DNA of 64,000 bases from an uncultured Chloroflexia bacterium (GCA_963741915.1 CAVUJW010000013.1:432245-496244), one strand, 5' to 3'. Shown: positions 35,870 through 57,497, numbered from the stretch's first letter. Notes: generated by a model from the letters alone, not told the origin. Program-made: numbers and translations.

Positions 35870-35886
35870 GTTCATTATCCATGAAC
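35870..35886. promoter_or_regulatory. Motif-B operator GTTCATTATCCATGAAC
   Basis: Inverted repeat overlapping a TATCGT -10-like box upstream of the SDR gene. Confidence 0.62.
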
Positions 35887-35936
35887 AGCCCCGCGTCGAC
35901 GGGCAGGTTCGCGGCCCGACAGGAGGAATCGGAACG

Positions 35937-36671
35937 ATGCCCAGGAGCTCACTCGATGGGTCCGTCGCGCTGATCACCGGCGGCGGAAGCGGGATCGGTG
36001 CCGCGCTTGCGCGCGATCTCGCGGCGGCCGGCGCCGCCGTGGTCGTCAGTGGCCGGCGATCCGAGCCGCTCGAGGAGCAGGTCGCATCGATCGTCGCCGC
36101 CGGCGGGCGGGCATCCGCGGAGGTCGCCGATGTGCGCGACTTCGACTCGATCCGTCGGGCGGTGGATCACGCGGTGGAGCAGTTCGGGCGGCTCGACGTC
36201 CTCGTTGCCAACGCCGCCATCGCCGACTTCGGGCCCGTGGCGACCGCCGACCCCGGCCTCTGGGAGGACGTGGTCCGGACCAACGTCCTGGGCGTGCTGT
36301 TCGCGGTCCGGGCCGCGATGCCGACGCTCGTCGCCCAGGGATCCGGGCACGTGGTGATCGTCTCGTCGGCATCGGGCCGCGAGACGTATGTCGGCGAGCC
36401 CGCCTACATCGCGACCAAGCATGCGACGGTCGCGTTCGCGGAGAGCCTGCGAAAGGAGGTCGCCGCCAGCGGGATCCGGGTGACCGTCGTCGAGCCCGGG
36501 CTGGTCGAGACGCCGCTGATCCACGTCTACCCGGAGGCGGACGAGCTGGTGCCGGGGGTGACCCCGCTCGAGCCCGAGGACGTGGCGAGGGTCATCCGCT
36601 TCGCGCTCGAGCAGCCACCCAACGTGGACCTGTTCGAGGTCGTGGTCTGGCCGACCAGCCAGGTCCTGTGA
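35937..36671 (+). CDS. SDR family oxidoreductase (YdfG-like / sugar-alcohol dehydrogenase-like)
   Basis: TGGGSGIG, NAA, YIATK and EPGLVET motifs; AGGAGG upstream. Confidence 0.88.
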   Translation: MPRSSLDGSVALITGGGSGIGAALARDLAAAGAAVVVSGRRSEPLEEQVASIVAAGGRASAEVADVRDFDSIRRAVDHAVEQFGRLDVLVANAAIADFGPVATADPGLWEDVVRTNVLGVLFAVRAAMPTLVAQGSGHVVIVSSASGRETYVGEPAYIATKHATVAFAESLRKEVAASGIRVTVVEPGLVETPLIHVYPEADELVPGVTPLEPEDVARVIRFALEQPPNVDLFEVVVWPTSQVL

Positions 36672-36725
36672 GCGGAGCGCGGCTGGTTCCGCCACGACCC
36701 GCGCTGGTTCCGCGACCCACCGGCG

Positions 36726-36778
36726 TTGACATGGTGCACCCGGGGGCATAGAGTCGTGATCGTTCACATAGTGTGAAC
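36726..36778 (+). promoter_or_regulatory. Sigma70-type promoter and motif-B operator
   Basis: TTGACA (36726-36731), 17 nt, TAGAGT (36749-36754); GTTCACATAGTGTGAAC at 36762-36778. Confidence 0.75.
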
Positions 36779-36828
36779 AAGTGGTTTCGACACGATGCGG
36801 CGGCGTTCCCGCGCTCGAGGAGGCTTGG

Positions 36829-38250
36829 ATGCTTGGGTTCGACGTCCACGGCACCCGCAGCAGGAGGGCCGCCATCCTCGCGGCCGGCCTGGCGCTGGTG
36901 ATCGCTTCGTGCTCGGGTTCGACGGCCTCGCCGTCCGCGAGCTCGCAGGCACCTTCCGCCCCGCCCTCGACGGCGGCGCCGGGCGGGTCCGCTGCGGCCA
37001 GCCCCTCGGGCAGCGGCGCTGCAGGCGCGTCGATGCTGGCACCGGCGACGCTCGAGGTGTGGCTCGGCGGCGTGCTCACCACGTCCACGCCGGGGTCGAC
37101 CTACCGGCACTGGGTCGATGCCCAGATCGACCGGTTCAAGGCGGCCGTGCCCGGCTCGGATGTGCACATCACCCTGCTGCCGGCCGACAACGATCAGCTC
37201 GCAGCGCAGGTCCAGGCGGCGTTCGCGTCCCACACGGTGCCCGACGTGATCATGCTCTACTCGGGGAGCTACACCACGGCGTACCAGTCGGCGCTGCTGC
37301 CCCTCAACACCTACATCGACGCAACCCCCGGCTTCTACGACCAGTTCTCGGGCTGGGACGCATCCTGCGTGGATCTCGACTGCAAGGGCGGCCAGGGGAC
37401 CATCCTGGCGGTGCCCATGGACGTCCTGGCGTTCGTGATGTGGTACAACAAGTCGCTCTTCGGCCAGGCTGGGGTGAGCTCGCCGCCGACCACGTATGAG
37501 CATCTCTACGGCGTGTGCGACGCGCTGAACGCCAAGGGCATCACCCCGATGACGTACGGCGACCGCGACGGGTACACGACCGACAACCTTGTGCTGATGA
37601 ACCTGGTCTCGTACTTCGAGCCGGGCGATGTCCAGAAGTTCATCGCGGGCCAGCTGCCGTTCACCGACCCCAAGTGGGTCGAGCCGCTCAAGGCGGTCGT
37701 GGAGCTCCACGCACGCCACTGTGCCGAGAAGGACGCCTCGACCCGCGAGCAGCTCGACGCCAACAACGACTTCATCACCTCGAAGCAGGCGATCGAGGAG
37801 GCCGGGCCGTGGTTCCTGCCCAGCCAGGAGCAGGGCCTGGGCGACGCGCTCGGGGTCGCCAAGCTTCCCGTCTCGGGCAACGGCCCGTGGAAGGACAAGA
37901 CGGCCTCGAACTCGGGCGAGGACTGGGCGATCCCGAAGGATGCCGCCCACCCGGACCTGGCGTGGGAGTTCATCAAGACTGTCACCGACGCCACGGCCAG
38001 CGCGCAGTACGCGAAGGACGTCGGGTACCCGCCGGCGAACATCGCCGGGGCGGCAACCGTGCAGGACCCGTACATCCAGACGATCGCCGGCTGGACCAAG
38101 GACTCGCCCATGCCGCTCATGGACAACGTGATGTCCCAGGCGACCGCCCTGACCTACTACCGCTACATCCAGCAGGCGTTTGCCGGCGCGATCACGCCCG
38201 AGCAGGCGATGCAGTCGGTCCAGGACTCGCTTCAGGGAGGGACGCCGTAA
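36829..38250 (+). CDS. Carbohydrate ABC substrate-binding lipoprotein (paralogue 2)
   Basis: IASC lipobox; long matching blocks with 34144-35553 such as PATLExWLGG and NDQLAAQVQAAFA. Confidence 0.88.
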   Translation: MLGFDVHGTRSRRAAILAAGLALVIASCSGSTASPSASSQAPSAPPSTAAPGGSAAASPSGSGAAGASMLAPATLEVWLGGVLTTSTPGSTYRHWVDAQIDRFKAAVPGSDVHITLLPADNDQLAAQVQAAFASHTVPDVIMLYSGSYTTAYQSALLPLNTYIDATPGFYDQFSGWDASCVDLDCKGGQGTILAVPMDVLAFVMWYNKSLFGQAGVSSPPTTYEHLYGVCDALNAKGITPMTYGDRDGYTTDNLVLMNLVSYFEPGDVQKFIAGQLPFTDPKWVEPLKAVVELHARHCAEKDASTREQLDANNDFITSKQAIEEAGPWFLPSQEQGLGDALGVAKLPVSGNGPWKDKTASNSGEDWAIPKDAAHPDLAWEFIKTVTDATASAQYAKDVGYPPANIAGAATVQDPYIQTIAGWTKDSPMPLMDNVMSQATALTYYRYIQQAFAGAITPEQAMQSVQDSLQGGTP

Positions 38251-38277
38251 GGGCCATCGCCCCCGGGGGGCGATCCC
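38251..38277. terminator. GC hairpin between convergent genes (possible terminator)
   Basis: ATCGCCCC...GGGGCGAT stem just after the SBP stop; no U-tract. Confidence 0.35.
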
Positions 38278-38279
38278 GG

Positions 38280-39428
38280 CGGCCCGGCGGTCGGGGCGCG
38301 CGGACGCTGACGGCGTCCGCCGCTCGGCTGCCGGTCCCCGGATCTGCGCGACGCGCGCTGCGAACGCCTCGAGCTCCGCCGGGCCGTCGAGGGCGCCGAT
38401 CTCGAGGTCGTAGGAGCGTGCCTCGCCGGGCTCGAGCTCGATCAGGCGGCCTTGCCGGCGGGCCTCCGCCCGCGAGATCGCGGGGTTGGTGCCCGGTTCG
38501 AGGCCCACGGCGTAGGTGCCTTCCCCGGACATCCGCCACACCATGAAGTGGGGGAGCTGGCTGGCGTTGAACACCTGGTACACGCCGATGCCTCGGCGCC
38601 GGTTGATCACCCCGACCGGAACCTGGCCATCGGCCTCGGTCGCGAGCTCGTAGTAGAAGCACGCCTCCTGGGCATCCGCGACGGGCGGCAGGAGCGTCGT
38701 GTGCCCGTCCACCTCCAGCCGGGGTCGCCCGTCGCCGAGGAGAGGGCACCAGCAGCTCGGCGCCCTGCGTCGACCACCGGGAAAGCCGCAGTTGCAGTGG
38801 TACAGGAGCATGTGGCTGGTCCGGCTGAAGCCCACGTTCTCGACGGTGTCATGGATCCGGACGTGCTCTCCCGACCTGCGCCTCGATCCGCCGCCGGAGC
38901 TGGAGCTGCTCGCCGAACACGGCCGCCTGCAGGACGTGCCCTCGGCCCAGAGCGTGCAGGCGTCGTCCGTCCAGGTCTCGCCGTACCCGGCGAGCTGCGC
39001 GGGCAGACCGCCCACCCGGCCGTGGAGGCCGTACCGCACGCTCGTGAACATGTGCGGCTGGTGGAACTGCTCCGCGGTGTCCTCCTCGGCGACCATGGTG
39101 TGGTCGAGGCCGCAGGAGACGACCATCCCGCCGGCCCACGAGCGGAACCAGCCCCAGTCATCGGGCTCGTAGTACCACGGACCGACCGGGCCCGGGGGCG
39201 CAAGCCAGCTCAGGGGCCGTCCCGACAGCTCGCATCGCCCCACGTCGAATGCGCGGTCGACGAGGACCTCGAACGCGAAGCCCGTCCCCGTTCGGAACTC
39301 GAGCACCCGCACCCCGCGCCCGATGCCGTCGCCAGGGTCACCAGGCGCACGCCCGCGACCTGCTCCAGGCGGCCGACGCGCCGAAGCAGGTCGGAGCGGG
39401 CAAATCGATCGCCCCACAGGTCCGGCAT
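38280..39428 (-). CDS. DUF4432 / aldose-1-epimerase-like protein (paralogue 2), several frameshifts, 3' end uncertain
   Basis: MPDLWG...RLEQVAGVRLVTL, LVDRAFDVG, SCGLDH, LHGR, HMLLYHCNCG and GLEPGT are spread across frames. Confidence 0.72.
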
Positions 39429-40669
39429 CAGCCATCGTCCTCCGGCCGCGACGGCCGTGCCACCTGCTCTGGCGTGGTCGTACATCGCGGCGCCATGCCC
39501 CGGTGGCCGGGTCCCCGCGGCAGCACCGGCCATATGTCGACCACGATGCCCGCGTCGTCGCTCACGTGATAGGCGTCGAACCAGTTCACCGTGGACGGCG
39601 CATAGCCCGGGATGACGGCGACGACCTCGCCCAGTCTGGGTGCCGCGTCGGCGGCTGCGAACACGCCATGCTCCTCGTCGAACCGGAGCGCACGCTCCTC
39701 GTGGCCCACGATCCGGGACAGCTCGCCGTCGCCGATCGACTTGCTGCCGGCGTCGATGATCACCCTGCCGGGCGCACGGCTGATGACCGTGGCCGCAACC
39801 GTGAGCGCGTGCTCGAACCCGCCCACCATCCGGGCGTGGAACTGGTCCATGACGACGTAGGTGCCGGCCTGGATCTCGGTCACGCCCGGATAGGCCGCCG
39901 TCCAGTCCCAGGTCGCCGTCCCGCCCGCCGATCGGATCGCCACGGGGATCCCGTCGGCCTCGAGCCGATCGGCGATCGCGACGAACAGCGCCATCGCCTC
40001 CCGCTGGAGCGCGTGACGCCGCTCGCGCTCCTCGGTGAGCGAGCAGTGCCCCTCGTAGCCGGTGATGCCCATCAGGCGGATGCCGGGCAGCCGCACGACG
40101 TGCCGTGCCAGGGCGAGGGCGGCATCCGCGTCGTCCACGCCGCAGCGATCCATGCCGGTGTCGATCTCGATGCACACGCCGATCTCGCTGCCCGCCCGCC
40201 GGGCCGCAGCCGCCAGGTCGGCGGCGTTGGCCGGGTCGTCGACCGCGACCACGATCTCCGTCTCGCGAGCGAGCTCCGCGAGCGCTCGCACCTTCGCATC
40301 CCCGACGACCGTGTTGACCACGAACAGGTGGTCGAGGCCGAAGCGCGCCATGACGGTCGCCTCCCAGACCGTCGCCGTCGAGAGGCCGATCGCGCCGGCA
40401 TCGATCTGGAGCCGGGCGAGCTCGGGACTCTTGTGCACCTTGATGTGTGGCCGGATCGCGGCCGGGAGCGGGCGCATCGCCTCGGCCATCCGCTCGATGT
40501 TCCGCCGTGCGGCCGGCAGGTCGAGCACCAGCGCCGGGGTGACGAGCTCCGAGCGGTGGCGGCCGACGGCGGCGCCGTAGGCCCGCCGGACGTCCTCGTA
40601 CAGCGGACGGAACTCCGGAGGGGGCGGCGAGGCCGGCGGCAGCGCGCCGGGCCGAGCGTCCGTGGTCAC
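39428..40669 (-). CDS. DSD1 / D-threonine-aldolase-like PLP enzyme (alanine racemase fold)
   Basis: TPALVLD, RPHIKVHKSP, EIDTGMDRCG, GYEGH, GGT, EIQAGTY, DAGSK and EEHG motifs. Confidence 0.82.
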   Translation of the reverse strand: MTTDARPGALPPASPPPPEFRPLYEDVRRAYGAAVGRHRSELVTPALVLDLPAARRNIERMAEAMRPLPAAIRPHIKVHKSPELARLQIDAGAIGLSTATVWEATVMARFGLDHLFVVNTVVGDAKVRALAELARETEIVVAVDDPANAADLAAAARRAGSEIGVCIEIDTGMDRCGVDDADAALALARHVVRLPGIRLMGITGYEGHCSLTEERERRHALQREAMALFVAIADRLEADGIPVAIRSAGGTATWDWTAAYPGVTEIQAGTYVVMDQFHARMVGGFEHALTVAATVISRAPGRVIIDAGSKSIGDGELSRIVGHEERALRFDEEHGVFAAADAAPRLGEVVAVIPGYAPSTVNWFDAYHVSDDAGIVVDIWPVLPRGPGHRGMAPRCTTTPEQVARPSRPEDDG

Positions 40670-41426
40670 GCGGCGCCCGAGGCCGCCCGATCGGCGCCGG
40701 CGGCGCCCGCCTGCATCGCCGCGACGTTCGCCCCGACGTCGCCGCCGTCGAACACCGCGCTGCCAGTCACGATGATGTCGCGCGCCGAGCGACGCCACCT
40801 GCCGGATGTTCGCCCGGGTCACGCCCCCGTCCACCTCGACGAGGACCGGGCGGCGGGCGGCGGCGGCGAGCTGCGCGGACGCGCGCCACCCGTCGGGCGG
40901 TTGCGGGCAGGAACGACTGCCCGCTCCAGCCGGGATCGATCGCCAGCACCAGCACCAGCTCCAGCTCGTCGAGCAACGGCTCGATCGCCTCGAGCGGGGT
41001 GCTGGGGTCGAGCCCGACGCCGCGGACGATGCCGCGCTCGGGATCGTTGTGCGTTGGGCAGCCGACCCAGCACGCGCAGCACGCGATGCGGGTGACGACG
41101 CCGGCCGAGGTGGAAGGTGACGATGTCCGCGCCCGCGGCGACGAACGCGTCGACCTTGGCCAGCGGGTCCTCGACCATCAGGTGGACGTCCTTGAGCAGC
41201 GGCGTCCGGATCGCCTTGACGAGCGGCGGCCCGACCGTCAGCTGCGGGCAGAAGACGCCGTCCATCACGTCGATGTGGACGATCTCCGCGCCGGTCGCCG
41301 CAGCGGTCGAGCTCGTCGCCGAGGTGGAGCAGGTCGGCCGTGAGCATGCCCACGCTGAGCCGCGGTCCCGCCTGCGGCGCAGCCGCTCCGCGGACGCGCC
41401 GCGGGCCGGGGCTCGCCTCGCGCCAT
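40666..41426 (-). CDS. Ribulose-phosphate 3-epimerase family (LsrE/SgcE-like), frameshifted
   Basis: HIDVMDGVFCP, KDVHLMV, PGWSGQ, VEVDGGV and TGSAVF across frames. Confidence 0.78.
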
Positions 41427-41429
41427 GGC

Positions 41430-42334
41430 TCAGGCCGTGATCCTGGGCGCGGCGAACTCGCGCTCGCAGCGCCTGGAACACCTCGTACGCCTCCGCCGGC
41501 GATAGCCCTCGTGCACGACCTTGCGCACCGCCTGGATCATCGCGGCCGGTGACTCGCTCTGGAAGATGTTGCGGCCCATGTCGACGCCGGCGGCGCCCTG
41601 CTGGACGGCCTGGTAGGCCATGGTCAGCGCGTCGAGCTCGGGGAGCTTCTTGCCGCCGGCCATCACGATCGGCACGGGGCAGCCCGCGGTGACCTTCTCG
41701 AAGCCCTCGGCGCAGTAGTACGTCTTGACGACCTGCGCGCCCAGCTCGGCGCAGATCCGGGTCGCGAGCCCAGGTAGCGGGCGTCGCGGACGAGCTCCTT
41801 GCCGACCGCGGTGACGCCGAGCACGGGGATGCCGTAGCGGTAGCCCTCGTCGACGAGGCGGGTCATGTTCGTGACCGACTGCGTCTCGTACTCGCCGCCG
41901 ACGAACACCTGGACCGCGATCGCCGAGGCGCTCATGCCGCACGGCGTCCTCGACGTCCATCGCGATCCGCTCGTTCGAGAGCTCCTTGAGGATGCTCGGG
42001 CCGCCGCTCGCGCGCAGCACGAGGCCCTGCTGGATGCGTCGGCGGGACGACGACTGCGCAGGATGCCGCGCGTCAGCATCAGGGCGTCGGCGTGCGGGGC
42101 GAGCGGGCACGATGTTCAGGTCGACGCGCTCGAGGCCGGTGGTGGGCCCCTGGAAGTAGCCGTGGTCGATCGCGAGCATCACCGTCCGGCCGCTCTCGGG
42201 CCGGAAGATCCGCGCCAGCCGGTGCTGCATCCCCCAGTCGTAGGCAGCCGGCGCCCTTCAGGAAGAACGCCGTGTTCTGCTGGGGCACGTCCTCGTGGAA
42301 GTGCTTGCGTCTCGCTGCTGTCAGCCTCGGGCAT
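41430..42334 (-). CDS. lsrF: LsrF (3-hydroxy-5-phosphonooxypentane-2,4-dione thiolase), frameshifted
   Basis: [55 protein letters not shown] and [11 protein letters not shown] closely follow E. coli LsrF. Confidence 0.88.
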
Positions 42335-42351
42335 CGTCTTGGTCCTTTCCT

Positions 42352-43956
42352 TCAGGCGCGTGCCTGGCCGGCTCGTCGAGCGTCGGCCCCGGCCGGCCAC
42401 CACATCGGGCGGCAGCAGCCCGTCCTCCGAGAGCTCGAGGATTTGCGGGTAGAGCGCCTGCGCCACGCCGCGTAGAGCTCGTCGTAGACGGTGCGCGCGT
42501 CGGGCTGCGGCTCGAACGTGCGCTCGAACCGGACGAGCTCGCCGCGGCCTCGCCGAGGTCCCGATAGAGGCCCGCGCCGACGCCGGCGCAGAACGCCGCC
42601 CCGAGCGCGGTGGACTCCTTGACGACCGGGACCCGGACGGGCAGACCGAGCGACGTCGGCGACGATCTGCGGCCACAGCTTGCCCTTCGCGGCTCCGCCC
42701 GTGAACACGAGCTCGTCGTAGCTGACCGCCGGTCAGCTCCTCGACGATGTCGAGGTGGCCGCGAGCGCGGTGTACGCGGCCTGCTCCTCGATCGCGCGGA
42801 TGCACGCCTTGCGGCCGGACGCCTCGGGTCGGCGACGTCGAAGCCCGAGGAACGACGGGCGCCGCCTGCACCCAGCGCTTGGCATCCATGACGTTCGCGA
42901 AGATGCCGAGCACGCCGTTGGCGCCGGGTGGCACCGCGGCCGCCGCCTCCTCCATCACGACGTAGGCGTCGACGCCGCGCCTGCTCGGCCTCGGCACTCT
43001 CGAGCTCGCAGAACGCATCGCGGAACCAGCGCATGGCGATCCCGCAGTAGAAGCCGATCCCCTCGATCATCCATTGGCCGGGCACGGCGTGGCACAGCGT
43101 GCGCAGCCGCGCCTGGGGATCGATCAGCGGCTGGTCGGTGACCACCGTCAGCTGCCAGAAGCTGCCGCCGACGAGCGTCAGCCGGTCCGGGCGCACGACG
43201 CCGATGCCGACCAGGCCGAGCTGCGTGTCGGCGCCGCCGACGACGACGGGCGTCCCGGCCCGGAGGCCGGTCTCCTCGGCGGCTCGCGCGCTGACGCGCC
43301 GACCACCGTGCCCGGCTCGAGCACCTCCGGCACGATCGGCCGGCGACAGGTCGATGAGCTCGAGCGATGACGCCGACCAGGACCGCGTCGCGGAGGTCGA
43401 ACAGGTCCGAGCTCGAGCCGGACGAGGGGTCGGTCACGAAGCGGCCGGTCAAGCCGGTACAGGACCCAGTCGCTGAGCATGCCCGACGTGGGCGATGGCG
43501 GCGAAGACGTCGGGCTCGTGTGCCTGTGATCCACAGGAACCGGGCCGGCGAGGTGATCGACACCCAGTCGCCACCCTGCTCGAAGATCTGGCGGCGCGCG
43601 GCCGCTCTCGACGAGCTCGGTCGCCTCGGCGCGCCGCGCGCGAGTCGACGTTCGGGCAGGCCCAGATCTCGCGCCCCGCGCGCGTCGTACAGCACCATGC
43701 CCTCGCGCATGCTGGTGCTGCTGACGCGCCGCGATCCGTCGGCCGGGACGCCCGCCGTGGCCAGCGCCTCGCGGATGCAGTCGCAGATCAGCTCCCAGTT
43801 CCGGCGCCGTGTCGAACACCTGCGACCCGGGGACTCCGGGCAGCGCCGCGTGGGTCCACTCCCGCTGGCCGATCGCCGACCTGGCGTGCCGTCCTCGTCG
43901 AACAGGACCGCGCGGCAGCTGCCCGTGCCGAGGTCGATCGCGAGGAGGTAGCTCAT
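42352..43956 (-). CDS. lsrK: Autoinducer-2 kinase LsrK-like FGGY kinase, multiple frameshifts
   Basis: MSYLLAIDLGTGSCRAVLFD, VPGSQVFD, SMREGMVLYD, GGSFWQ, MRWFRDAFC, KGKLWPQIVAD and PVVKESTALG motifs. Confidence 0.8.
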
Positions 43957-45055: not shown

Positions 45056-45208
45056 GATCCCGTGGACCTCCAGCATGTTCGACGGGCGGATGGCTCGCGC
45101 CCGATCGCCTGTGGAGGCGCCCGGGCACCGCCAGAAAGATTGTGCATCGTCAGTCAAGGCTGTGCGTCGTAGGATACGGGCGCTGCCCAGCACGCCACTG
45201 GAGGATGC

Positions 45209-46219
45209 GTGAGCCGCCGTCATCGGGCCCCTGCAGTCATCGAGACCAAGCCCGCGGACTTCCTGACCGACATCGCCACGCGGTACTACCTGCACGCCGA
45301 CTCGCAGGTCGAGATCGCCCGCGATCTGGGGCTCGATCCATCGACAGTCTCGCGCTATCTGAAACGGGCGCGGGATGAGGGCGTCGTCCACGTCGAGATC
45401 CGTCCCCCGAGGCACGAGGACCTCGAGCTCGGTCGAGAGCTGGCCGTGCGCCACGGGCTCGCACGGGTGGTGGTGGCTCCCGACGTCGATGGCGGCGCGG
45501 ATAGCGACGCCGCCCTCGATGGGGTCCTGCCGTGGGCCGCCGCGCAATTCCTCGAGGGACTGCTGCGCAACGGGATGCGGCTCGGGGTCTCCTGGGGGCG
45601 AACCCTCGCCAACACCGTCTCGGAGCTGCGTCCGGGCACCGTGTCCGGGCTGCACCTCGCCCAGCTCGCGGGTGGCGTCGCCGACCCGCAGCCGGGCATC
45701 CAGGGCCATGACCTGGTGCGCCAGATCGCGGAGCTCTATCCCGGCTCGACCGTCGACTACCTGCACGCCCCGGCGATCGTGGGATCCGACGAGACCGCGG
45801 TCGCGCTGGCCGCGGACCGCACGATCCAGGCCGCGCTCGGCGCGGCCCGTCGCAGCGAGCTGGCGCTGGTCGGGATCGGGCAGATGGACGAAGGCTCCAC
45901 CCTTTTCCGGGGCGGACACGTCCCGCCCGAGGACTGGTCCAGGCTGCTCGCGGAGGGCGCCATCGGCAACATCAACACCGGCTTCTTCGATGGGCGCGGA
46001 CGTGCCCTCGACTCGCTGCGGGCGAGAACGATCGCGGTCTCGCTCGAGGAGCTGCGCAGCATCCCGACCGTCATGGCCGTCGCGGGTGGGCGGACGAAGG
46101 TGGCGGCGATCGAGGGTGCGATCGCCACCAGCACGATCGACATCCTGGTCACAGACGAGGCGACGGCGAACCTCCTCCTGGCGAGCGCCGCACGCGGGCA
46201 GCGATCGCGAACCGCCTGA
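45209..46219 (+). CDS. SorC/LsrR-family sugar-binding transcriptional regulator
   Basis: ATRYYL..SQVEIARDLG...VSRYLKRARDEG HTH; GVSWGRT, ALVGIG and LVTDE motifs; divergent from the lsrK operon. Confidence 0.9.
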   Translation: MSRRHRAPAVIETKPADFLTDIATRYYLHADSQVEIARDLGLDPSTVSRYLKRARDEGVVHVEIRPPRHEDLELGRELAVRHGLARVVVAPDVDGGADSDAALDGVLPWAAAQFLEGLLRNGMRLGVSWGRTLANTVSELRPGTVSGLHLAQLAGGVADPQPGIQGHDLVRQIAELYPGSTVDYLHAPAIVGSDETAVALAADRTIQAALGAARRSELALVGIGQMDEGSTLFRGGHVPPEDWSRLLAEGAIGNINTGFFDGRGRALDSLRARTIAVSLEELRSIPTVMAVAGGRTKVAAIEGAIATSTIDILVTDEATANLLLASAARGQRSRTA

Positions 46220-46299: not shown

Positions 46300-46316
46300 G
46301 TTCAGAGCTGATGAAC
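46300..46316. promoter_or_regulatory. Motif-B operator GTTCAGAGCTGATGAAC
   Basis: Inverted repeat overlapping a TATTGT -10-like box upstream of the amidohydrolase. Confidence 0.6.
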
Positions 46317-46366
46317 AGGACAGAGCCTCGGCGCGGCTTCTCCGTCGCGGCGAGGAGGGAGCAGCG

Positions 46367-47619
46367 ATGCGATTTGACCTCGTGATAAAGGGCGGAACAC
46401 TGATCGACCCGGCGGCAGGCATCGATGGCCCGCGCGACATCGGCATTGCCGGCGATCGTGTCGTCGCCGTCGACGCGGACCTGCCCACCGCCGAGGCTGC
46501 CCGGGTCGTCGTCGCGACCGGACAAATCGTGACGCCGGGCCTGATCGATATCCATGCCCACGTGTTCCTCGGGGCGGACTACTTCGGGATCGACGCCGAC
46601 AGCCTCGCCTGGCGCTCGGGTGTCACGACGTGGGTGGATGCGGGCTCGGCAGGCGGCTTCCGGATGCCGGCGCTCCAGGCCCAGGTGGTCGAGCGCTCGG
46701 CGGCGCGCATCCGCGCCCTGATCAACATCTCCTACCTCGGGCTGTCGGGTCTCAACTACGACGAGTACTGCAACCCCGCTGCGTGCAACCTCGAGGTCCT
46801 GGCGCGGGTCGCCGCCGCGTACCCCGACCTCGTCGTGGGCATCAAGACCCGGATGGGCAAGGAGGGGGTCTGCTACCCGGGGCTGCGCCCCCTTCGCCGG
46901 GCCGTCGAGTCCGGCGCGGCAACCGGCCTGCCGGTCATGTGCCACCTGAGCGGCACCCCGCCGACGGTGGAGCGCGTCCTCGCGCTGCTGCGTCCCGGCG
47001 ACATCGTCACCCACGCGTTCACCGGGGCCGGCGAGAACTCGTGGACGACCGGGGGAGGCTCCGCCCGGCCGTCGCCCGGGCCCGCGATCGGGGCGTGCGG
47101 TTCGACATCGGCCACGGCGCGGGCTCGTTCTCGTTCGCCTCGGCCGAGGCCCTGGTGCGCCAGGGCTTCTGGCCCGATACGCTGTCGACGGACCTGCACC
47201 AGCTGAGCGTCGCCGGCCACAACCTGGTCGAGGACCAGGCGTTCATCGGAGAGGTTCGGGGCGATGGGTCACCCGAGCTGACGCTGCTGACCGTGATGAC
47301 CAAGTTCCTCTACCTCGGCTGGTCGACCCGGGACGTGATCCGGGCCGTGACTTCTTCCCCGGCCGCGACGTTCGGTTGGAGCGACATCGGCACGCTCCGC
47401 GTGGGCTCGCTGGCCGATGTCGCCATCCTCGAGGTCGCCGAGGGCGCCCGCGAGCTGTACGACATCGAGGGCAACGTCCGCCCTTCGACCGTGGCTTCGT
47501 GTGCCACGCGACGATCGTGGGCGGGCGCGCCGATGGACCCGAAGCCGATCCCGGCGCCGCCACCCTGGATCCGCCTGGTCGACGTCGAGGCGGGTCGAGT
47601 CGAGCGAGCGTCCGCATGA
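46367..47619 (+). CDS. Amidohydrolase/deacetylase (dihydroorotase-like, Atu3266/EF_0837-type), frameshifts near 47035 and 47490
   Basis: PGLIDIHAHV, GVTTWVDAGSAG, GIKTR, VMCH, GDIVTHAF, DIGHGAGSFSF and STDLH motifs. Confidence 0.8.
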
Positions 47620-49693
47620 CCGGTGCCGGTGGGCGCGGCTCCCTGCGGGCACGCCCTGACCCGAGTTGGTTTCAGCTGTGGTACGGGCGAGACGAGCCGC
47701 CCGGCGGGACGCGAGCTCACGGCAGGTCCGCTGTCGGCCACCCTCGTTGGCGCCGATCTCGTGGGTATTCGCCTGGGTGATCTGGCCCCTGATCGACCGC
47801 ATCTACCCGTCGGTCCGCGACCGCGACTGGAACACCGTCGAGCCCGAGCTGTCGGCCGTGGCGATTCGCGAGGACGGCGGGGCCCTCAGCGCGACGTTCG
47901 ACGGCCGAAGCCGGGCGGACGAGATCGACCTCCGCTGGCGGGGAACGGTGACCGCGACCGCCGACGGCATCCTGACCTACGTCATGGACTGCGAGGCCGC
48001 CTGCGAGTTCGACTACTGCCGGATCGGCTTCTGCGTGCTCCATCCGGCGTCGACGGCAGCAGGCCGCCCGTTCCACGCCGACACGATCGAGGGTCCCGTC
48101 GACGGCGAGCTGCCGGGGCTCATCGCGCCCCAGTCCATCGTCGACGGCGTCGAGGTCCCGCTGTTCCCGGCCTGCCGTCTCCTCGCCGTCGACCTCGGCG
48201 AGGCGACGATCGTTACCGAGTTCGAGGGCGACCTGTTCGAGATGGAGGACCAGCGCAACTGGACCGACGCCTCGTTCAAGACGTACTGCACCCCGATCGC
48301 GCTCGGCTACCCCCATCACGCGCAGGCCGGGCAGCGGTTCCACCAGGTCGTTCGCGTGCTCGTCCGGCCGACGGCACCCGCCGGATCGCCTGGCCGGTCG
48401 CGTCCGTCCCGACGACGGGACGCGCGGACGATCGAGCTGGCGATGCCCACCACGGCGGGCGGGCCGGGTCCGAGGCTCGGGGTCGGTTCGGCATCCTGGC
48501 TGGGCCGATCGCTGTCGCCCAGAGAGGCGGCCCGGCTCCGGGCGCTCGAGCTGGATCACCTCCGGGTGGACGTCCGACTGTCGGCGGCGGACTGGCCGGA
48601 GCGCCTCGAGCGTGCCGCTCGCGATGCGCAGGCCGTCGGCGCCGGGCTCGAGGTGGCGCTCTTCGTCCGCGAGGACACGACGGCGCAGCTGCCGGCCCTC
48701 GCGGGACGGCTGGCCGGCGGCGCGGCGGCGCGCATCCTCGTGTTCCACGAGCCCACGGCCGGGACGCGATCGACGCCCTCCGGCTGGCTGCCGCGAGTGC
48801 GCGCCGCGCTCGCCGAGGCCGTTCCGGGCGCCTCGTTCGCGACCGGCACCGACGGGGACTTCGCGGAGCTCAATCGCGACCGGCCGGACCTCCGGAGCGC
48901 CGATGCCCTGACCTACGCCCTGAACCCGCAGATCCACGCCTTCGACGAGGCATCGATGGTGGACACCCTCGAGGTCCAGGCCACCACCGTGGCCACGGCG
49001 CGAGCGTTCGCGGACGGCCTTGACGTCGGGGTGAGCCCGGTCACCCTCCGCCAGCGCTTCAACCCGGCCGCGACCAGTGGGTCGCCGATGTCCGACGACG
49101 TGGCGCCCGGGCAGCTTCCCGCCGGGATCGATGACCGGCAGGCCACGCTGTTCGCCGCCGCCTGGACCGTGGGCAGCTACGCGGCGCTCGCCGACGCCGG
49201 CGCGGCCTGGGTGACCTACCACGAGACGATCGGCCCCCGCGGCCTGATGGGCGCCGCGGGACTGCGTCGCCGCTCGCACGACGTGGCCCCGGCCGGCGGC
49301 GTCTATCCCGTCTACCACGCGCTGGCGGATCTCTCCGGGGCCGCCGGCTGGACGTGCTCGCGGCTCGTGTCGAGCGCCGGCCCCGGGGCGGTCGCCGGCC
49401 TGCTCATGCGGAGCGGCGACGACATCCGGCTCGTGGTCGCCAACCTCCGGCCCGCGGCGCGCACCGTCGCGCTGCCGGTGGCGTCCTTCCGGGGGCTCCG
49501 CCTTCGGCTGCTCGACGAGCGCAACGTCCTGGCGGCGATGGCGTCGCCGGCGCGCCATCGGGCGACGTCCTGGCGCCCGCTGTCCGCGCGCGCGGCGGCG
49601 GCGCTGCGGCTCGAGCCGTACGCGATCGCGCGGATCGACGGACGGGTCCGAGTGCCGGGCGACGATGCGGCGGCAGCAGGGGACGGCGGATAG
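47616..49693 (+). CDS. D-apionate lactonase (ApnL)-like protein, frameshifts in the 5' part
   Basis: ELTAGPLSA, VRDRDWNT, RIGFCVLHP, FEMEDQRNWTDASFKTY, FAELNR and PQIHAFD motifs, as recalled for the ApnL family. Confidence 0.65.
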
Positions 49694-49785
49694 GGGAGCC
49701 GCCACCCGCTCGGCCGGCACTCGATGGGGCCCGCCCCGGCCTCGCGCGAGTCCTTGCCGGGCCTGGCGGGACGCTCGACCGACGA

Positions 49786-50703
49786 TCAGTATTCCGGCGC
49801 GCGACGCCCCGCGATGACGTCCTCCTGGACCTGGACGAGCGCTGTCGGGTCGACGGTGGCCCGGATGACCTCCCCGACCGCCTGGTCGCCCGCCCGGCCG
49901 ACGAACGCGGCGCTCGTGTTCGCCCCGGCCAGCACCCGCTCCGTCGCCGCCGAGAGCGGCCGGCTGGGCATGTCCGGGGGATAGCGCATCAGGGCATCCT
50001 CGACGTCGAGGATGGCGGCATCGATCCGGCCGGCCTCGATCTCGCGCACGGCCAGCAGGTAGTTGAGGGGCACGTACTCGACCTCGTCGCCGAACTCGAG
50101 GGTCGTCATCCGCTCGAAGTCGTACGAGGAGCGGTCGATCGCCACCCGCCGGATCGGACCGTCGACGGCGGTCCTGGACAGGAACACCCGGTGCTCGCGG
50201 ACGAAGGTGCCGGGCGGGAGCGTGAGCAGCACCTCGAACCGGTCGCCGGCCATGCCGTCGGCCGCGAGCCGGGACATCACCGCGACCTGGCAGCGTCCCT
50301 GCGCCAGGGCGGCGATGCGGGGCCGGGAGCCCCGGATGAACGACAGGAAGGCATCGATCCCGCCCGCCACCAGGCTCGCCCGGATCGCGGTCGCCAGGCC
50401 GTTGATGCGCTCGGTCGAGGGCAGCGACATCGCGATGAGGAGGGGGCCCAGGTCCGTGGCCTCGAACAGCCGGCCGATGTCCCGCCCGAGCAGGACGGCA
50501 CCGCGTCCCGGACGGCTGTCGAGGCTGATCGCGCCGTCCGCGGCCAGCGCCGCGAGCTCGATCTGGGTCGCCCCGACGCTCGCGTGGAACCGCGCCGCGA
50601 GGGTTCGCACCGGTGCGACGTTGTCGCCCGGTGCCACGGTAAGAAGGTGGCTCGCCAGCGCCCGGCGGAGCGCATCCGCCTTGCGCACGCCGCGCCTGGT
50701 CAT
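49786..50703 (-). CDS. YhfZ-like regulator (GntR-like HTH plus C-terminal ligand-binding domain)
   Basis: SVGATQ, AMSLP, GLATAI, IRGSRPRI, VMSRLAA and C-terminal VIAGRRAPEY parallel E. coli YhfZ. Confidence 0.72.
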   Translation of the reverse strand: MTRRGVRKADALRRALASHLLTVAPGDNVAPVRTLAARFHASVGATQIELAALAADGAISLDSRPGRGAVLLGRDIGRLFEATDLGPLLIAMSLPSTERINGLATAIRASLVAGGIDAFLSFIRGSRPRIAALAQGRCQVAVMSRLAADGMAGDRFEVLLTLPPGTFVREHRVFLSRTAVDGPIRRVAIDRSSYDFERMTTLEFGDEVEYVPLNYLLAVREIEAGRIDAAILDVEDALMRYPPDMPSRPLSAATERVLAGANTSAAFVGRAGDQAVGEVIRATVDPTALVQVQEDVIAGRRAPEY

Positions 50704-50860
50704 GGGCGCCCGGCGAGGGGCGTGACCCGACGCGAACCGGGGTACGACCGGCGGCCGGCGCCCACGTTCAGACTCCGTCGGACACCCAGCGCTCGATCCC
50801 TCAACCTTGCCTCCGTCCGCCCACCTGCCGGCACTCTACAACCCGCTCGATCCGCTTCCC

Positions 50861-50907
50861 TTGACAGCGGGCCACTGCGGTGGTTCGATTGTTCACGAAT
50901 TATGGAC
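50861..50907 (+). promoter_or_regulatory. Promoter and motif-B operator
   Basis: TTGACA (50861-50866), 17 nt, TTCGAT; GTTCACGAATTATGGAC at 50891-50907, divergent from the YhfZ-like gene. Confidence 0.6.
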
Positions 50908-50972
50908 GATACGCGGGGCCGCGACCGGGCCCGCGGGCAAGACCGTCACCCGAGCTCCATGGAGGATCGTGC

Positions 50973-52022
50973 ATGAGCGCTCCGTCGGCTGATCTGCCCG
51001 CCGGGATGGCGGGTCTTCGCTACGGCATCACGCAGGTCTCCCTCGCGGTGCGCGATCTCGACGCCACGATGGCCCGCTACCACCGGGCCTTCGGCTGGGC
51101 GCCGTGGCAGGTGTTCGACCACGTGCCCCCCATGCACCACAACACGATGCTCCGAGGGCAGCCCGTGCACTACGCCCTCCGGGGTGCGGAGGTTTACGTC
51201 GGCTCGCTCAACTTCGAGCTGCTCCAGCCGCTCGAGGGACCGAACCTGTGGTCGGAGTTCATGGACCGCCGGGGCGAGGGCGTGGCCTCGATCGCGACGA
51301 TGTTCCTGGAGCGCGAGGACGGCGACGCTGTCAAGGTCGCGTTCAAGGAGCGGTTCGGCATCGACGTCAACATGAAGGCCGACATCGGCGATCACATCGA
51401 GTACTACTACCTCGATACCGAGCGTCAGTTCGGGTGCCTGATCGAATCGGGGAGCGGCCACGCCATCGACTTCGTCAAGCCGGTGCAGGTCTACCCGCAG
51501 CCGGGCGCCCAGCCCGGCCCGTCGCCGGTGAGCGGGATCACATACCCCATCACCCAGGTCTCGACGACGGTGCGCGACCTCGAGACCAAGGTCCGCAACT
51601 ACCACGACGCCTTCGGCTGGGGCCCGTGGAAGATCTACGAGTCCGACGGCACGCGGGTCATGCACCACTCCCAGTGGAACGGGAAGCCGGCCGAGTTCAA
51701 GGTGCGCTGGGCCGAGACGATGGTCGGCGACCTGAACTTCGAGCTCATCGAGCCGCTGGCGCCGGGCAACCCGTTCCACGAGTTCCTGCAGACCAAGGGC
51801 GAGGGCATCTCGTCGATCGCCGTGATGTTCCAGACGGCCGAGGAGTCGGAGCGGGTCAAGGCGCAGTTCGCCGCCGACGGCATCGGGATCACCGCGATCA
51901 GCCACATCGGCGATCACATCGAGTGGTACTTCCTCGATACCGAGCCCGCGTTCAAGTGCGTCATCGAGTCGGGCAGCGGCCACGCCCACGACTTCGAGAT
52001 GCCGTACACGACGTACCCGTAG
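50973..52022 (+). CDS. Internally duplicated VOC protein (methylmalonyl-CoA-epimerase-like)
   Basis: Two homologous halves, each ITQVS..VRDL...FGW.PW...LNFEL..PL...GEG..SIA...IGDHIE...LDTE...IESGSGHA. Confidence 0.82.
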   Translation: MSAPSADLPAGMAGLRYGITQVSLAVRDLDATMARYHRAFGWAPWQVFDHVPPMHHNTMLRGQPVHYALRGAEVYVGSLNFELLQPLEGPNLWSEFMDRRGEGVASIATMFLEREDGDAVKVAFKERFGIDVNMKADIGDHIEYYYLDTERQFGCLIESGSGHAIDFVKPVQVYPQPGAQPGPSPVSGITYPITQVSTTVRDLETKVRNYHDAFGWGPWKIYESDGTRVMHHSQWNGKPAEFKVRWAETMVGDLNFELIEPLAPGNPFHEFLQTKGEGISSIAVMFQTAEESERVKAQFAADGIGITAISHIGDHIEWYFLDTEPAFKCVIESGSGHAHDFEMPYTTYP

Positions 52023-52124
52023 GCCGATCCACCCGCCCGGTGTCGCGAGGTCGGCGGGCGCGGGCGGCAGCCGCAGCTCGAGGCGAGCGCTGGTGGCACG
52101 GGTCGGACGACGCCCGATGACGAG

Positions 52125-53729
52125 GTGACAGTGTCGCCGGGGCGCGAGCGCTTCGATCTGGTCATCCGGGGCGGGTCGATCGTCGATGGCACGGGCTCGG
52201 CGCGCGCCGCGGCGGATGTCGCGATCGCGGGTGGCCGCATCCGCGCGATCGGCGACCTGTCGGTGGCCTCCGCGGCGGACGAGGTCGATGCGACGGGCCT
52301 GGTGGTGTGCCCCGGCCTCATCGACGTCCACAGCCACTCCGACTTCACGCTGCTCGTCGATGGCCGGGCGCAGAGCGCGCTGGCCCAGGGCGTGACGACC
52401 GAGCTCGTGGGCAACTGCGGGCACGGCTGCAGCCCGATGCGCGACACGCCGGCGTTCGCTGCCAACATCTTCGGGTACGACGCGCGGACGCCCCTCGACT
52501 GGCGATCCACCGCGGAGTACCTGGGACGCCTCGAGCGCGAGGCACCGTCGATCAACGTGGCCACCCTGGTGCCGCTGGGCAACCTCCGGATCGCGGTCAT
52601 GGACGATCCGGAGCGCTCGGCTTCGCGGGACGACCTGGACGCCATGGCGAGGCTGCTCGAGGAAGGCCTCGCTGCGGGGGCATTCGGGTTGTCGGCGGGC
52701 CTCTCGTACCCCGACTCGATCAACGCTGACCCGGCCGAGCTCGAGCGCCTCAACGAGCTCGTCGCCGGCCAGAACGGGCTGTACGCGATCTGCATGCGCG
52801 ACACCGGCGATGGGGCGGTGGGCAGCCTCGACGAGGGGCTCGAGACGGCGCGGGCGACCGGTGTTCGCCTCCAGCTGTCGCATGCGATGCCGGAAGCCGG
52901 CAGCCCGCCGGACATGATGGATCTCACGTTCGAGCGCGTCGCAGCGTGCCGGGACGACGGGTTCGACGTCGGGTTCGACATGCACACGAGGCCGTTCGGT
53001 GAGGTCAACCTCAGCATCGCCCTGCCGGTCTGGGCCCTCGAGGGGGGTCCGCGGGCGCTGGAGATACGTCTCCGCGACCGGGCGACGCGGGACCGGATCA
53101 AGGCCTACCCGAGCACGCTCAACCACTACCTGGCCGACCCCGGGCCGGAGCGGCTGACGATGGCGTTCGTCCACGACCCCGCCGTCCGCGGCCGAAGCCT
53201 GGCCGAGCTCACCCCGGATGGCGGCGACGCGCTGGACACGGTGCTGGACATCCTGGTCGACGAGGTGGACGAGGTCCATCGCCCGCTGGTGCTGATCTGG
53301 ATGTACCCCGAGGACGAGGTGGCCCGCTTCTATCGGCATCCCCTGTGCGCCATCGCCTCGGATGCCACGACGCTGAGCCCCGTTGGGCCGCTCGAGGACG
53401 CGATGTTCCACGGTGCCTACACCTGGGCGGCGTGGTTCCTCCGCCGGATGGTGAACGAGCGCACGGAGCTGCCGCTCGAGGAGGCCATCCGGCGCGTCAC
53501 GTCGCTGCCCGCGAGCCGGATCGGGCTGCGGGATCGCGGCGTGATCCGCGCCGGAGCATGGGCGGACCTGGCCGTGCTCGATCTCGGCCGGGTCGCCGAG
53601 CGTGGCACCGTCGAGGCCCCGAACCGACTGGCCGAGGGAGCGCGGCACGTGGTGGTGAACGGCCGCTTCGCAGTTCGCGACGGATCGTTCACCGACGAGC
53701 GGTCCGGGAGCGTCCTCCGGCGCGCCTGA
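52125..53729 (+). CDS. N-acyl-D-amino-acid deacylase family amidohydrolase (paralogue 2)
   Basis: IVDGTG, PGLIDVHSHSD, QGVTTELVGNCG, GLSAGLSYP, ASDA and DRGVI motifs. Confidence 0.82.
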   Translation: MTVSPGRERFDLVIRGGSIVDGTGSARAAADVAIAGGRIRAIGDLSVASAADEVDATGLVVCPGLIDVHSHSDFTLLVDGRAQSALAQGVTTELVGNCGHGCSPMRDTPAFAANIFGYDARTPLDWRSTAEYLGRLEREAPSINVATLVPLGNLRIAVMDDPERSASRDDLDAMARLLEEGLAAGAFGLSAGLSYPDSINADPAELERLNELVAGQNGLYAICMRDTGDGAVGSLDEGLETARATGVRLQLSHAMPEAGSPPDMMDLTFERVAACRDDGFDVGFDMHTRPFGEVNLSIALPVWALEGGPRALEIRLRDRATRDRIKAYPSTLNHYLADPGPERLTMAFVHDPAVRGRSLAELTPDGGDALDTVLDILVDEVDEVHRPLVLIWMYPEDEVARFYRHPLCAIASDATTLSPVGPLEDAMFHGAYTWAAWFLRRMVNERTELPLEEAIRRVTSLPASRIGLRDRGVIRAGAWADLAVLDLGRVAERGTVEAPNRLAEGARHVVVNGRFAVRDGSFTDERSGSVLRRA

Positions 53730-53825
53730 GCCCGCGCGCCGAAGTCCCTCCGCCACGCGCCCATGCGCCCGCCGACTCGGCGCTGCGGGGTTGTGGACTG
53801 CGATCGCGGGCTTGCCTCGCGGGCC

Positions 53826-54605
53826 TCAGATCGACGATTGCCCGCCGTCGACGACCAGGGCGGTCCCGATGCAGTAGGAGGCCTCCTCCGAGCACAGCCA
53901 GAGGATCGCGGCGGCCACCTCATCGGCCCGGCCGGCGCGACCGAGCGGGACCTGGTCGCTCCAGTATCGCAGCTGCTCCGGATCGCTCATCACGTGGCCG
54001 TTGATGGGCGTATCGATGAAGCCGGGGATGACCATGTTGACCCGGATGTCGTGTCGAGCGAAGTCGATGGCCATCACCTTCATCATCGCGAAGATGCCGC
54101 CCTTGCTCGCGCTGTAGGCGGGTTCGTTGTAGGCCATCCCGAGGTAGCCGCAGTTCGAGCCCAGGTTCACGATCGCGCCGCCCCCGGCCGCCTGCAGGTG
54201 GGGCAGGGCGTACTTGCAGGTCAGGAACTGGCCGTTGAGGTTGGTGACGATGACCCGGTTCCAGGCGTCGAGCGTGATGCGGTCCAGCCGATCGTCCTCG
54301 TCGGGTAGCTCGACGGCCGCGTTGGCCACGACGAGGTCGAGGCCGCCCATCGCTGCGGCCGCCGCGTCGACCGCCGCGCGGATCTCGTCCTCGACCGAGC
54401 AGTCGGCGGGCAGCACCACCGCCCGGCCGCCACCGGCCTCGATCTCCCGTGCCAGCGCATCGAGACCCTCACGCCCACGCGCGACGAGCGCCACCTGCGC
54501 GCCCTCCGCGCCGAAGCGCAGGGCGGTCGCCCGGCCGATGCCCTTGCTCGCCCCGGTCACCAGGGCCCCCTTGCCGGCGAACCGGTTCGGGATCGGCTTG
54601 ATCAT
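53826..54605 (-). CDS. SDR family oxidoreductase (paralogue of 26362-27141)
   Basis: TGASKGIG, YSASK and PGFIDTPIN; shares a DDRxDR segment with 26362. Confidence 0.9.
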   Translation of the reverse strand: MIKPIPNRFAGKGALVTGASKGIGRATALRFGAEGAQVALVARGREGLDALAREIEAGGGRAVVLPADCSVEDEIRAAVDAAAAAMGGLDLVVANAAVELPDEDDRLDRITLDAWNRVIVTNLNGQFLTCKYALPHLQAAGGGAIVNLGSNCGYLGMAYNEPAYSASKGGIFAMMKVMAIDFARHDIRVNMVIPGFIDTPINGHVMSDPEQLRYWSDQVPLGRAGRADEVAAAILWLCSEEASYCIGTALVVDGGQSSI

Positions 54606-54928
54606 GCTTTCGCCTCCTGTGCCTACGATCCACCTCGAGCAACAGCGCCTACGCGGCTGACCGCACCTAGTGGGTGGCGCCAGTGCGACTCATCGGCACC
54701 ACGGTCGCTCCCATTCGCCTGTGGACCTCGAAGCGACGAGATGGGGTCCCACGCCAGTCCTCAATGATGGCGTACCGGGCCGGTCCGGGAAACGGCTTCC
54801 AGCGTGGCCGAGGACGACCAGCCCTGGGATCGGCCCATTGGCGGGGGAGCCCAGCCTCCGCCGAACACCCTTGGGCCGAATCCCCCAAACGCTCCCGCAC
54901 GAATGGCAGCAGGGCGTACAGAACGATC

Positions 54929-54965
54929 TTGACGCCCACTAGAGAGTCGTTCACAGTGAGTGAAC
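54929..54965 (+). promoter_or_regulatory. Promoter and motif-B operator
   Basis: TTGACG at 54929-54934; GTTCACAGTGAGTGAAC at 54949-54965 covers the expected -10 position. Confidence 0.65.
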
Positions 54966-57496: not shown

Positions 57497-57497
57497 G

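Follow-up and report, generated by a model that had tools for sequence, protein, structure and literature searches.

A candidate operator and five-promoter regulon for a YhfZ-type regulator in an uncultured Chloroflexia bacterium

The DNA under study, a stretch of 64,000 nucleotides from an uncultured Chloroflexia bacterium (GCA_963741915.1 CAVUJW010000013.1:432245-496244; hereafter the window), contains five copies of a 17-bp palindrome, (A)TY-GTTCA-N7-TGAAC-R(AT), and thereby raises the question of which regulator, if any, reads this element. The first-pass annotation had proposed that the palindrome is the operator of a YhfZ-type regulator encoded among the five copies (49786-50703), and from the sequence evidence presented below we consider it likely that the YhfZ-type protein is indeed the binder. 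With the palindrome and its five promoters, a YhfZ-type regulator gains its first credible operator and regulon, a repressor-operator regulon as such being of a known kind. The annotation had also held that no YhfZ operator was described, and the literature searched, in which supplements and regulon databases were not included, yielded none. The same literature, as far as it was accessible, named neither a target nor a ligand of YhfZ, and the search for PF14503, YhfZ_C, HTH_41 and PF14502 returned nothing relevant.

The palindrome and its promoters

The five sites are found at the coordinates and with the sequences originally given for them, four being exact matches to GTTCA-N7-TGAAC and the one at 50891 having a single mismatch (TGGAC). 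Operator 1, GTTCATTATCCATGAAC (35870..35886), and operator 2, GTTCACATAGTGTGAAC (36762..36778), precede the ATG of a short-chain dehydrogenase (SDR) gene and of a solute-binding protein (SBP) gene, respectively, each by 50 nt. Operator 3, GTTCAGAGCTGATGAAC (46300..46316), lies between the gene of a SorC/DeoR-type regulator and an operon encoding an amidohydrolase and an ApnL-like protein, with 50 nt from its 3' end to the amidohydrolase ATG. Operator 4, GTTCACGAATTATGGAC (50891-50907), is situated in the divergent region between yhfZ and a double-VOC gene, 65 nt from the ATG of the latter, and has next to it an extra half-site, GTTCG at 50883-50887, the region with both elements spanning 50883..50907. 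Operator 5, GTTCACAGTGAGTGAAC (54949..54965), is placed 77 nt 5' of the SBP ATG of an operon for an ABC transporter and phosphotriesterase (PTE)-type hydrolases. All these distances (50, 50, 50, 65 and 77 nt) are counted from the end of the operator. The sites are intergenic in all five cases, as had been claimed, and every downstream ATG is on the + strand and has a GGAGG-type ribosome-binding site. They had also been described as AT-rich, which holds relative to the genome, the corresponding 200-nt bins having 64-69% GC against 72% for the genome.

The palindrome is far more frequent in the window than composition predicts. Allowing one mismatch to GTTCA-N7-TGAAC, the window has 6 matches against 0.46 ± 0.66 expected, a number reached by none of 100 shuffles; the sixth match, at 59730 (GATCA...TGAAC), is inside PTE coding sequence, reaches only 11.8 bits with the matrix described below and was set aside as a probable chance occurrence. 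Across the source assembly (G000; 3,995,770 bases in 24 contigs, about 72% GC, marker-gene completeness 61%) there are 4 exact copies, where a mononucleotide model expects 0.48, and all are inside 19.1 kb of the window, so that the motif is not equally common elsewhere in this genome; the chance of 4 random sites sharing 19.1 kb is about 4e-7. Matches with at most one mismatch total 26 in the 4.0 Mb, including the 6 in the window. A weight matrix trained solely on 15 sites of five other genomes (G005, G166, G120, G158 and G148) and run over the roughly 4.0 million positions of G000 places the window sites at ranks 1-5, with 27.0, 29.7, 24.5, 31.1 and 26.5 bits for operators 1 to 5, i.e. a range of 24.5-31.1 bits headed by operator 4, the top score of the genome, while rank 6 has 19.3 bits. 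These results identify a specific palindrome that is over-represented at promoters.

The relation of the palindrome to core promoter elements varies between sites. A promoter-like sequence, TTGACA-17-TAGAGT (36726..36754, + strand; 10 of 12 matches), lies 5' of operator 2, the promoter scanner finding 2 such sites in 19.5 kb against 0.5 expected. Operator 2 starts 7 nt past the -10 of this promoter and should for this reason cover approximately +1 to +17. Sites 1 and 3 share their first two operator bases with a TAnnGT hexamer (TATCGT and TATTGT), and no good -35 is seen for them, whereas sites 4 and 5 have a -35-like TTGACA or TTGACG and an ambiguous -10 assignment. Hexamers of the form nAnnGT (TATCGT, TATTGT, GATTGT, CATTGT, TATAGT) end in the first GT of sites 1 and 3 and of many orthologous sites, and in several other genomes TTGACA or TTGACG is present 17 nt 5' of that hexamer. 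As for the placement on or directly behind a -10-like box that had been described for the five sites, the scanner bears it out for site 2 only, while sites 1, 3, 4 and 5 were not called and their elements are weak or ambiguous; the overlap of operator and core promoter is clear at site 2, and the other sites have -10-like hexamers only.

The YhfZ-type regulator and the inheritance of its sites

The regulator encoded at 49786..50703 (- strand; 305 aa), divergently from the site at 50891, appears to combine a GntR-like winged helix-turn-helix with a YhfZ_C domain of type-II binding-protein fold. Its naming as YhfZ-type is borne out by several lines of evidence. Residues 76-305 match Pfam YhfZ_C (PF14503) with 144 bits, well above the cut-off of 35, and the C-terminal domain matches PDB entry 2OZZ with an E value of 7.6e-24. 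The NCBIfam model NF041241 (YhfZ_full) aligns end-to-end with residues 7-305; the score of 195.1 bits is below the equivalog cut-off of 260, so that the protein is a YhfZ homologue whose function is not equated with that of YhfZ under the NCBI rule. E. coli YhfZ is 32% identical over residues 1-305 (E 6e-39), and the N-terminal region of the window protein aligns to residues 1-75 of the E. coli protein. An AlphaFold (AF2) model obtained with a 22-row alignment has a pLDDT of 93.4 and consists of a winged helix (residues 3-74; helices 3-21, 32-38 and 43-55 and a hairpin at 59-74, with pLDDT around 90) followed by an alpha/beta domain. The best Foldseek match of the latter domain is YhfZ 2OZZ (target TM 0.84), followed by LysR effector domains and type-II/amino-acid SBPs. 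Homodimer predictions scored 0.61, 0.48 and 0.41, with one control as high as 0.36, and count neither for nor against a dimer.

This architecture invites comparison with GntR-family systems of the FadR, HutC/NagR and AraR types, which have an N-terminal winged helix-turn-helix and a C-terminal effector domain, and whose operators are palindromes with a GT...AC outline, located on or near the -10/+1 region of catabolic promoters and of their own divergent promoters. From what is generally known of them, they have the domain order, the GT...AC palindrome and the promoter placement in common with the window system. They differ in that the effector domain here is a YhfZ_C type-II periplasmic-binding-protein fold, and not FCD, UTRA, an aminotransferase fold or the LacI-like domain of AraR, and in that the N-terminus scores below the Pfam cut-offs for GntR and HTH_41. 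We know of no GTTCA half-site with a 7-nt spacer in the named GntR subfamilies, a point on which no search was made.

Genes of this kind are found in 18 of 201 genomes of the taxonomic family (G000 included) and in none of the 9 of the same genus, and where they occur the palindrome tends to be next to them. Five of the 5 exact sites of G005 lie at C2:78500-93520, within 15 kb and around yhfZ (86287-87189); 4 of the 5 in G166 lie at C5:946386-962137, within 17 kb and beside yhfZ (945347-946261); and 3 of the 4 in G120 lie at C1:59-4642, within 4.6 kb and around yhfZ (136-1050). Both exact sites of G158 flank yhfZ, and 1 of 3 is near it in G148, a fragmented assembly of very short contigs. Considering the 14 loci in which YhfZ is at least 41% identical, i.e. 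the window and the 13 relatives of alignment A3, a site with at most one mismatch is present within 300 nt upstream of yhfZ in 12, these being the window and 11 of the relatives; neither alignment nor count includes a 28% match (L018) or the yhfZ genes that are split in G004 (L016/L023) and G163 (L017/L022). The remaining two loci (G065 and G091) have 2-mismatch variants with TGAACAATGRAC, of the form GTCCG-N7-TGAAC-AA-TGRAC. In G102 and G050 two overlapping sites make up a 24-bp perfect palindrome, and composite sites are present on both flanks of the split yhfZ of G004.

The conservation is more precise in the four closer relatives (77-91% protein identity), all of which carry a site between yhfZ and the VOC gene, 3 of the 4 also retaining an exact site at the position of operator 3, before the amidohydrolase/ApnL-like operon. 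Footprinting in the alignments of these relatives (A1 and A2), a check that the first-pass annotation had itself suggested, reveals that the half-sites, the additional GTTCG element and the yhfZ promoter's TAGAGT are invariant, whereas spacers and flanks diverge; at operator 4, both the degenerate half-site and the extra one are retained. The motif is co-inherited with the regulator gene and is present at the regulator's own promoter region.

A distinct scenario is observed for the more distant paralogue-type loci of the family (at most 39% identity, n = 8), in which the recognition helix reads SSLSSIH and not S[VIL]G[AT][TV][QH], and in which 1 of 8 has a match with at most one mismatch, probably inside coding sequence. 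The repeats near these eight loci differ as well, being of TGTTCGCAAACGWTCRAC type, so that motif and recognition helix co-vary. In seven of the loci (L011, L013-L015 and L019-L021, from G132, G078, G200, G147, G091, G005 and G065; 34-39% identity) conserved repeats of this type stand beside TTGACA and are probably the operator of the SSLSSIH paralogue group.

In the mechanism that we propose, a dimer of the YhfZ-type regulator would bind the two inverted GTTCA half-sites, which would cover the 3' end of the -10 and the transcription start at the five promoters and so block RNA polymerase. Once a small molecule of the pathway occupied the C-terminal domain, the protein would leave the DNA, allowing joint expression of the five units, namely the SDR; the orphan SBP; the amidohydrolase with the ApnL-like lactonase homologue; the double-VOC protein with a second amidohydrolase; and the ABC transporter together with its two PTE-type hydrolases, SDR and HD protein. 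The direction of control is read here from operator position only.

Alternative readings of the palindrome

A number of observations weigh against this assignment. The word repressor leans mainly on site 2 and on analogy, because the promoter elements at sites 1, 3, 4 and 5 are weak or ambiguous, and the ATY flank of the palindrome may reflect the overlapping -10 hexamer and not a contact with the protein. The N-terminus of the regulator is under the Pfam cut-offs, with 16.2 bits against 25 for HTH_41 and 13.5 against 27 for GntR, the orthologues of G005 and G158 being above them (40.4 and 42.7 for HTH_41; 40.0 and 42.8 for GntR). The gene of the SorC/DeoR-type regulator lies within the motif cluster in G000, G166 and G005, so that linkage alone does not exclude SorC there. 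Moreover, at least one exact copy of the 10-nt core is present in 73 of the 201 genomes, a tally that includes the unpublished G082 and G139, with one site each, on which no other result depends; most genomes have 0-2 copies, and the reversed-pattern control mostly 0. Eight genomes have at least 4 copies, and four of these are without a YhfZ_C match (G020 with 6, G112 with 4, G184 with 11 and G187 with 4 copies). A GTTCACAGCNRGTGAAC-type site is found 3' of glpK and before plsY in both G166 and G020. Finally, none of 12 YhfZ_C loci outside the family, but in the same phylum, has TTCA-N4..10-TGAA upstream, the sole two matches being inside coding sequence; YhfZ_C genes were found in 14 of the 401 genomes sampled across the phylum. 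The motif is for this reason specific to a subgroup and not to the whole YhfZ_C family, and its extension to all YhfZ_C proteins was discarded on account of those 12 distant loci.

As to the copies outside yhfZ loci, those in the annotated loci of G020 and G184 occur in unrelated contexts and have GC-rich spacers. The contexts in the motif-rich genomes without yhfZ (G020, G184 and G075) comprise xanthine-dehydrogenase/CoxE genes, MttB/sigma factor, nickel superoxide dismutase (Ni-SOD) and glpK-plsY. The sequence GTTCACAGCNRGTGAAC recurs independently of yhfZ at L030:5398 (G166), L035:5699 (G020) and L036:8213 (G075), and in G184 three GTTCA-N7-TGAAC elements stand in 190 bp (L034:3887-4070), adjoining Ni-SOD and signal-peptidase genes.

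The YhfZ-type protein might bind these sites without being a simple repressor, acting instead as an activator or in a dual manner, for instance if it switched on its own divergent promoter or if a higher-order complex required the extra half-site of operator 4. We regard this as unlikely, even if operator 4 is located some 55-70 nt 5' of the yhfZ promoter's conserved -10 (TAGAGT), a typical activator position with respect to yhfZ itself, and even if a third or fourth half-site is present at the operators adjoining yhfZ and sites 1 and 3 have poor promoter elements, as activated promoters commonly do. At site 2 a near-consensus promoter, which should work without an activator, is covered by the operator from about +1 to +17, and a -10-like hexamer overlaps the operator at many orthologous sites. 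Most characterised GntR-family regulators of sugar and acid metabolism are repressors.

In a second alternative the binder is another protein, the sites being bound by the SorC/DeoR-type regulator (45209-46219), by a GntR/FCD regulator (24356-25417) or by an unlinked factor; this we hold to be quite improbable. The SorC gene lies directly 5' of operator 3, within the three clusters mentioned above, a GntR/FCD gene is found both within the window and close to the cluster of G005, and the 10-nt core also occurs in genomes without yhfZ. SorC/DeoR-type regulators control sugar catabolism genes in many bacteria, and the window system resembles theirs in that one such protein is encoded beside operator 3. 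The first-pass annotation had foreseen that the motif could track another regulator, and for SorC this was checked in the other genomes, of which 16 have orthologues (E 1e-88 or better). None of the best 11 non-self orthologue loci, which were the ones examined, has a site with at most one mismatch within 1.5 kb, and six genomes with an orthologue and without a yhfZ match (G045, G140, G001, G143, G072 and G160) have 0 exact sites genome-wide, the motif thus failing to follow SorC. Conversely, G120 has yhfZ and sites but no PF04198/SorC-type domain match in its 83% complete genome, and G102 and G050 are without an orthologue at E 1e-40 or better. Furthermore, SorC and GntR/FCD each head a divergent operon of their own without the motif, and yhfZ is the sole gene flanked by a site in every cluster.

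The palindrome could alternatively act in the RNA, as a 5'-leader hairpin GUUCA...UGAAC affecting stability or translation. Transcripts probably have the sites at their extreme 5' end, and the hairpin is part of the minimum-energy fold of 3 of the 5 leaders, but the stem has just 5-7 pairs and the folds for sites 1 and 4 lack the hairpin. The leaders fold no better than shuffled sequences (z = -0.42, 0.47, -0.79, -0.43 and -1.71), no Rfam family was matched, and across 20 sites the stem sequence stays the same, without compensatory changes. Considering also that the sites serve divergent promoters and are upstream of yhfZ promoters as well, a role in the RNA is very unlikely. Lastly, short AT-richer palindromes are commoner in the intergenic DNA of GC-rich genomes, but chance or a functionless repeat is hardly credible and is refuted as far as statistics reach, with 4 exact copies against 0.48 expected, all within 19 kb, and with conservation beside orthologous genes in several genera.

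Genes under control, E. coli YhfZ and the surrounding island

Returning to YhfZ as the predicted repressor, the gene sets downstream of the five operators correspond to those listed in the first-pass annotation, as determined by Pfam and NCBIfam scans, and all are on the + strand. Operator 1 precedes the SDR gene (35937..36671) and operator 2 the gene of the SBP_bac_1 solute-binding protein (36829..38250). Under operator 3 lies an amidohydrolase/deacetylase-family metallohydrolase (46367..47619), which is read in two frames with the change near 47030; its NCBIfam match is split between one frame (positions 2-223) and another (219-351), whereas the gene is intact in relatives (about 427 aa), and it is either a frameshifted gene or the product of an assembly indel. 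The same operon encodes the ApnL-like protein of 675 aa (47666..49693). Operator 4 precedes the double VOC/glyoxalase-fold protein (50973..52022), the gene of which adjoins yhfZ in every annotated orthologous locus, and 3' of it is the gene of a D-aminoacylase-like Amidohydro_3 protein (52125..53729). The operon under operator 5 (55043..63040) encodes an SBP, two permeases, a MalK-like ATPase, two PTE-family proteins, an SDR and an HD-domain protein. Its GC content is 55-65%, against about 72% elsewhere, yet it carries a perfect operator; the lower GC suggests that it was acquired more recently. The second PTE gene (60695-61492) begins at profile position 42 and may be truncated at its 5' end.

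The yhfZ-linked units of other genera have a comparable composition, with CUT1-type ABC transporters, SDRs, PTE-type hydrolases, ApnL-like proteins, amidohydrolases and double-VOC proteins, to which a cyclase-family hydrolase and apiosidase-like glycosidases are added near yhfZ elsewhere. This gene content suggests uptake and oxidative catabolism, by a dehydrogenase and then a lactonase, of a sugar or sugar derivative via a lactone. ApnL lactonase belongs to D-apiose/D-apionate catabolism, and the window resembles D-apiose/D-apionate clusters in that its 675-aa protein matches the D-apionate lactonase model and apiosidase-like glycosidase genes are found in or near the clusters. It differs in the score of that match, 219 bits (8.3e-65) against an equivalog cut-off of 750, and the Pfam and NCBIfam scans of the regulon genes, which were not a search aimed at them, named no other enzymes of the D-apionate pathway.

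An operator with a five-promoter regulon makes the uncharacterised YhfZ family testable. The regulon would join the double-VOC protein, the PTE/Php-type hydrolases, the ApnL-like lactonase, the amidohydrolases and the SDRs as one co-regulated pathway, for the substrate of which the sensor domain of the regulator could serve as bait.

The E. coli php-yhfSTUVWXYZ locus allows a comparison outside the phylum. In K-12, in agreement with the first-pass annotation, yhfZ is close to php and to yhfX of pyridoxal-phosphate (PLP) fold, and YhfZ is annotated as a 'putative DNA-binding transcriptional regulator', the K-12 annotation assigning no function to the locus. Both proteins have the same full-length two-domain architecture, with the C-domain fold of 2OZZ, and the recognition-helix pattern SVGxTQ in common, and both loci link the regulator with PTE/Php-type hydrolases and an alanine-racemase-fold enzyme. 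The genes differ, the E. coli locus having no ABC transporter, VOC or ApnL-like gene and the window no YhfS, YhfT, YhfU, YhfW or YhfY.

Palindromes with the same TTCA/TGAA core are present in the E. coli operon as well. Upstream of K-12 yhfZ (L053, NC_000913.3) a perfect TATCTTCA-N6-TGAAGATA is found at 3512374-3512393, with ATTTTCA-N6-TGAATAT 24 nt from it (3512350-3512369), and ATATTCA-N6-TGAATAT lies between yhfY and yhfX (3511008-3511027). The K-12 chromosome has 4 copies of ATNTTCA-N6-TGAANAT, a pattern derived after these three sites had been viewed, and 3 of the 4 are at intergenic regions of the yhfZ operon. Matches to the perfect palindrome with at most 2 mismatches total 43 genome-wide, so that three within 1.4 kb are far above background. 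A comparison of three divergent E. coli records finds the half-sites unchanged, with variation at 4 of 6 and 2 of 6 positions in the spacers. The three palindromes are therefore put forward as a candidate operator of E. coli YhfZ, one that differs from the window motif in its N6 spacer and in having no outer G/C. A GTTCA-N14-TGAAC element 5' of E. coli yhfZ was also considered as an operator and dropped, as it lies inside what we take to be a repetitive extragenic palindrome/bacterial interspersed mosaic element (REP/BIME) repeat. PMC2965389 mentions a BIME before yhfZ.

We propose tentatively, with somewhat less than even confidence, that YhfZ-type regulators keeping the helix S-V/I-G-x-T/V-Q read inverted TTCA/TGAA half-sites across phyla, as ATY-GTTCA-N7-TGAAC-RAT here and as ATnTTCA-N6-TGAAnAT in E. 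coli K-12. If true, this would provide the first operator and regulon for the family and an experimental handle on the php-yhf locus, and the same question could be asked in the best-studied bacterium.

The remainder of the window contains genes outside the proposed system. ABC permeases and an SBP are encoded at 32327 to about 35735 (- strand) and have their own TTGACA-17-TAGAGT promoter (35823-35795), without a GTTCA site; directly past its -10, at 35770-35795 on the - strand, is a GC-rich palindromic stretch, GACCGGTCGACC, which may be the operator of another regulator. A further SDR gene (53826-54605, - strand) lies between the Amidohydro_3 gene and operator 5. The SorC/DeoR-type regulator (45209..46219, + strand) is divergent from a region (38250-45170, - strand) with partial domain matches in different frames (2-Hacid_dh_C, FGGY_N, DeoC), a BhcC-like Ala_racemase_N/D-ser_dehydrat gene at about 39428-40570 and a weak codon-position GC contrast. 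This may be a decayed or error-ridden sugar-kinase/aldolase operon, and it is probably the SorC protein's own target.

The GntR/FCD regulator (24356-25417) is in turn divergent from an operon of transaldolase-like, SDR, ApbA-type reductase, metallo-beta-lactamase-fold, FAA-hydrolase, DUF4432 and zinc alcohol dehydrogenase genes, with which it spans 24356-32181. Apiosidase-like genes are located at 18173-19858 and 63197-64000, and the whole window looks like a catabolic island for sugars or sugar acids with three separate regulators. A DDE_3 transposase with an N-terminal helix-turn-helix is encoded at 9202-10347, between malate synthase and purine-catabolism genes.

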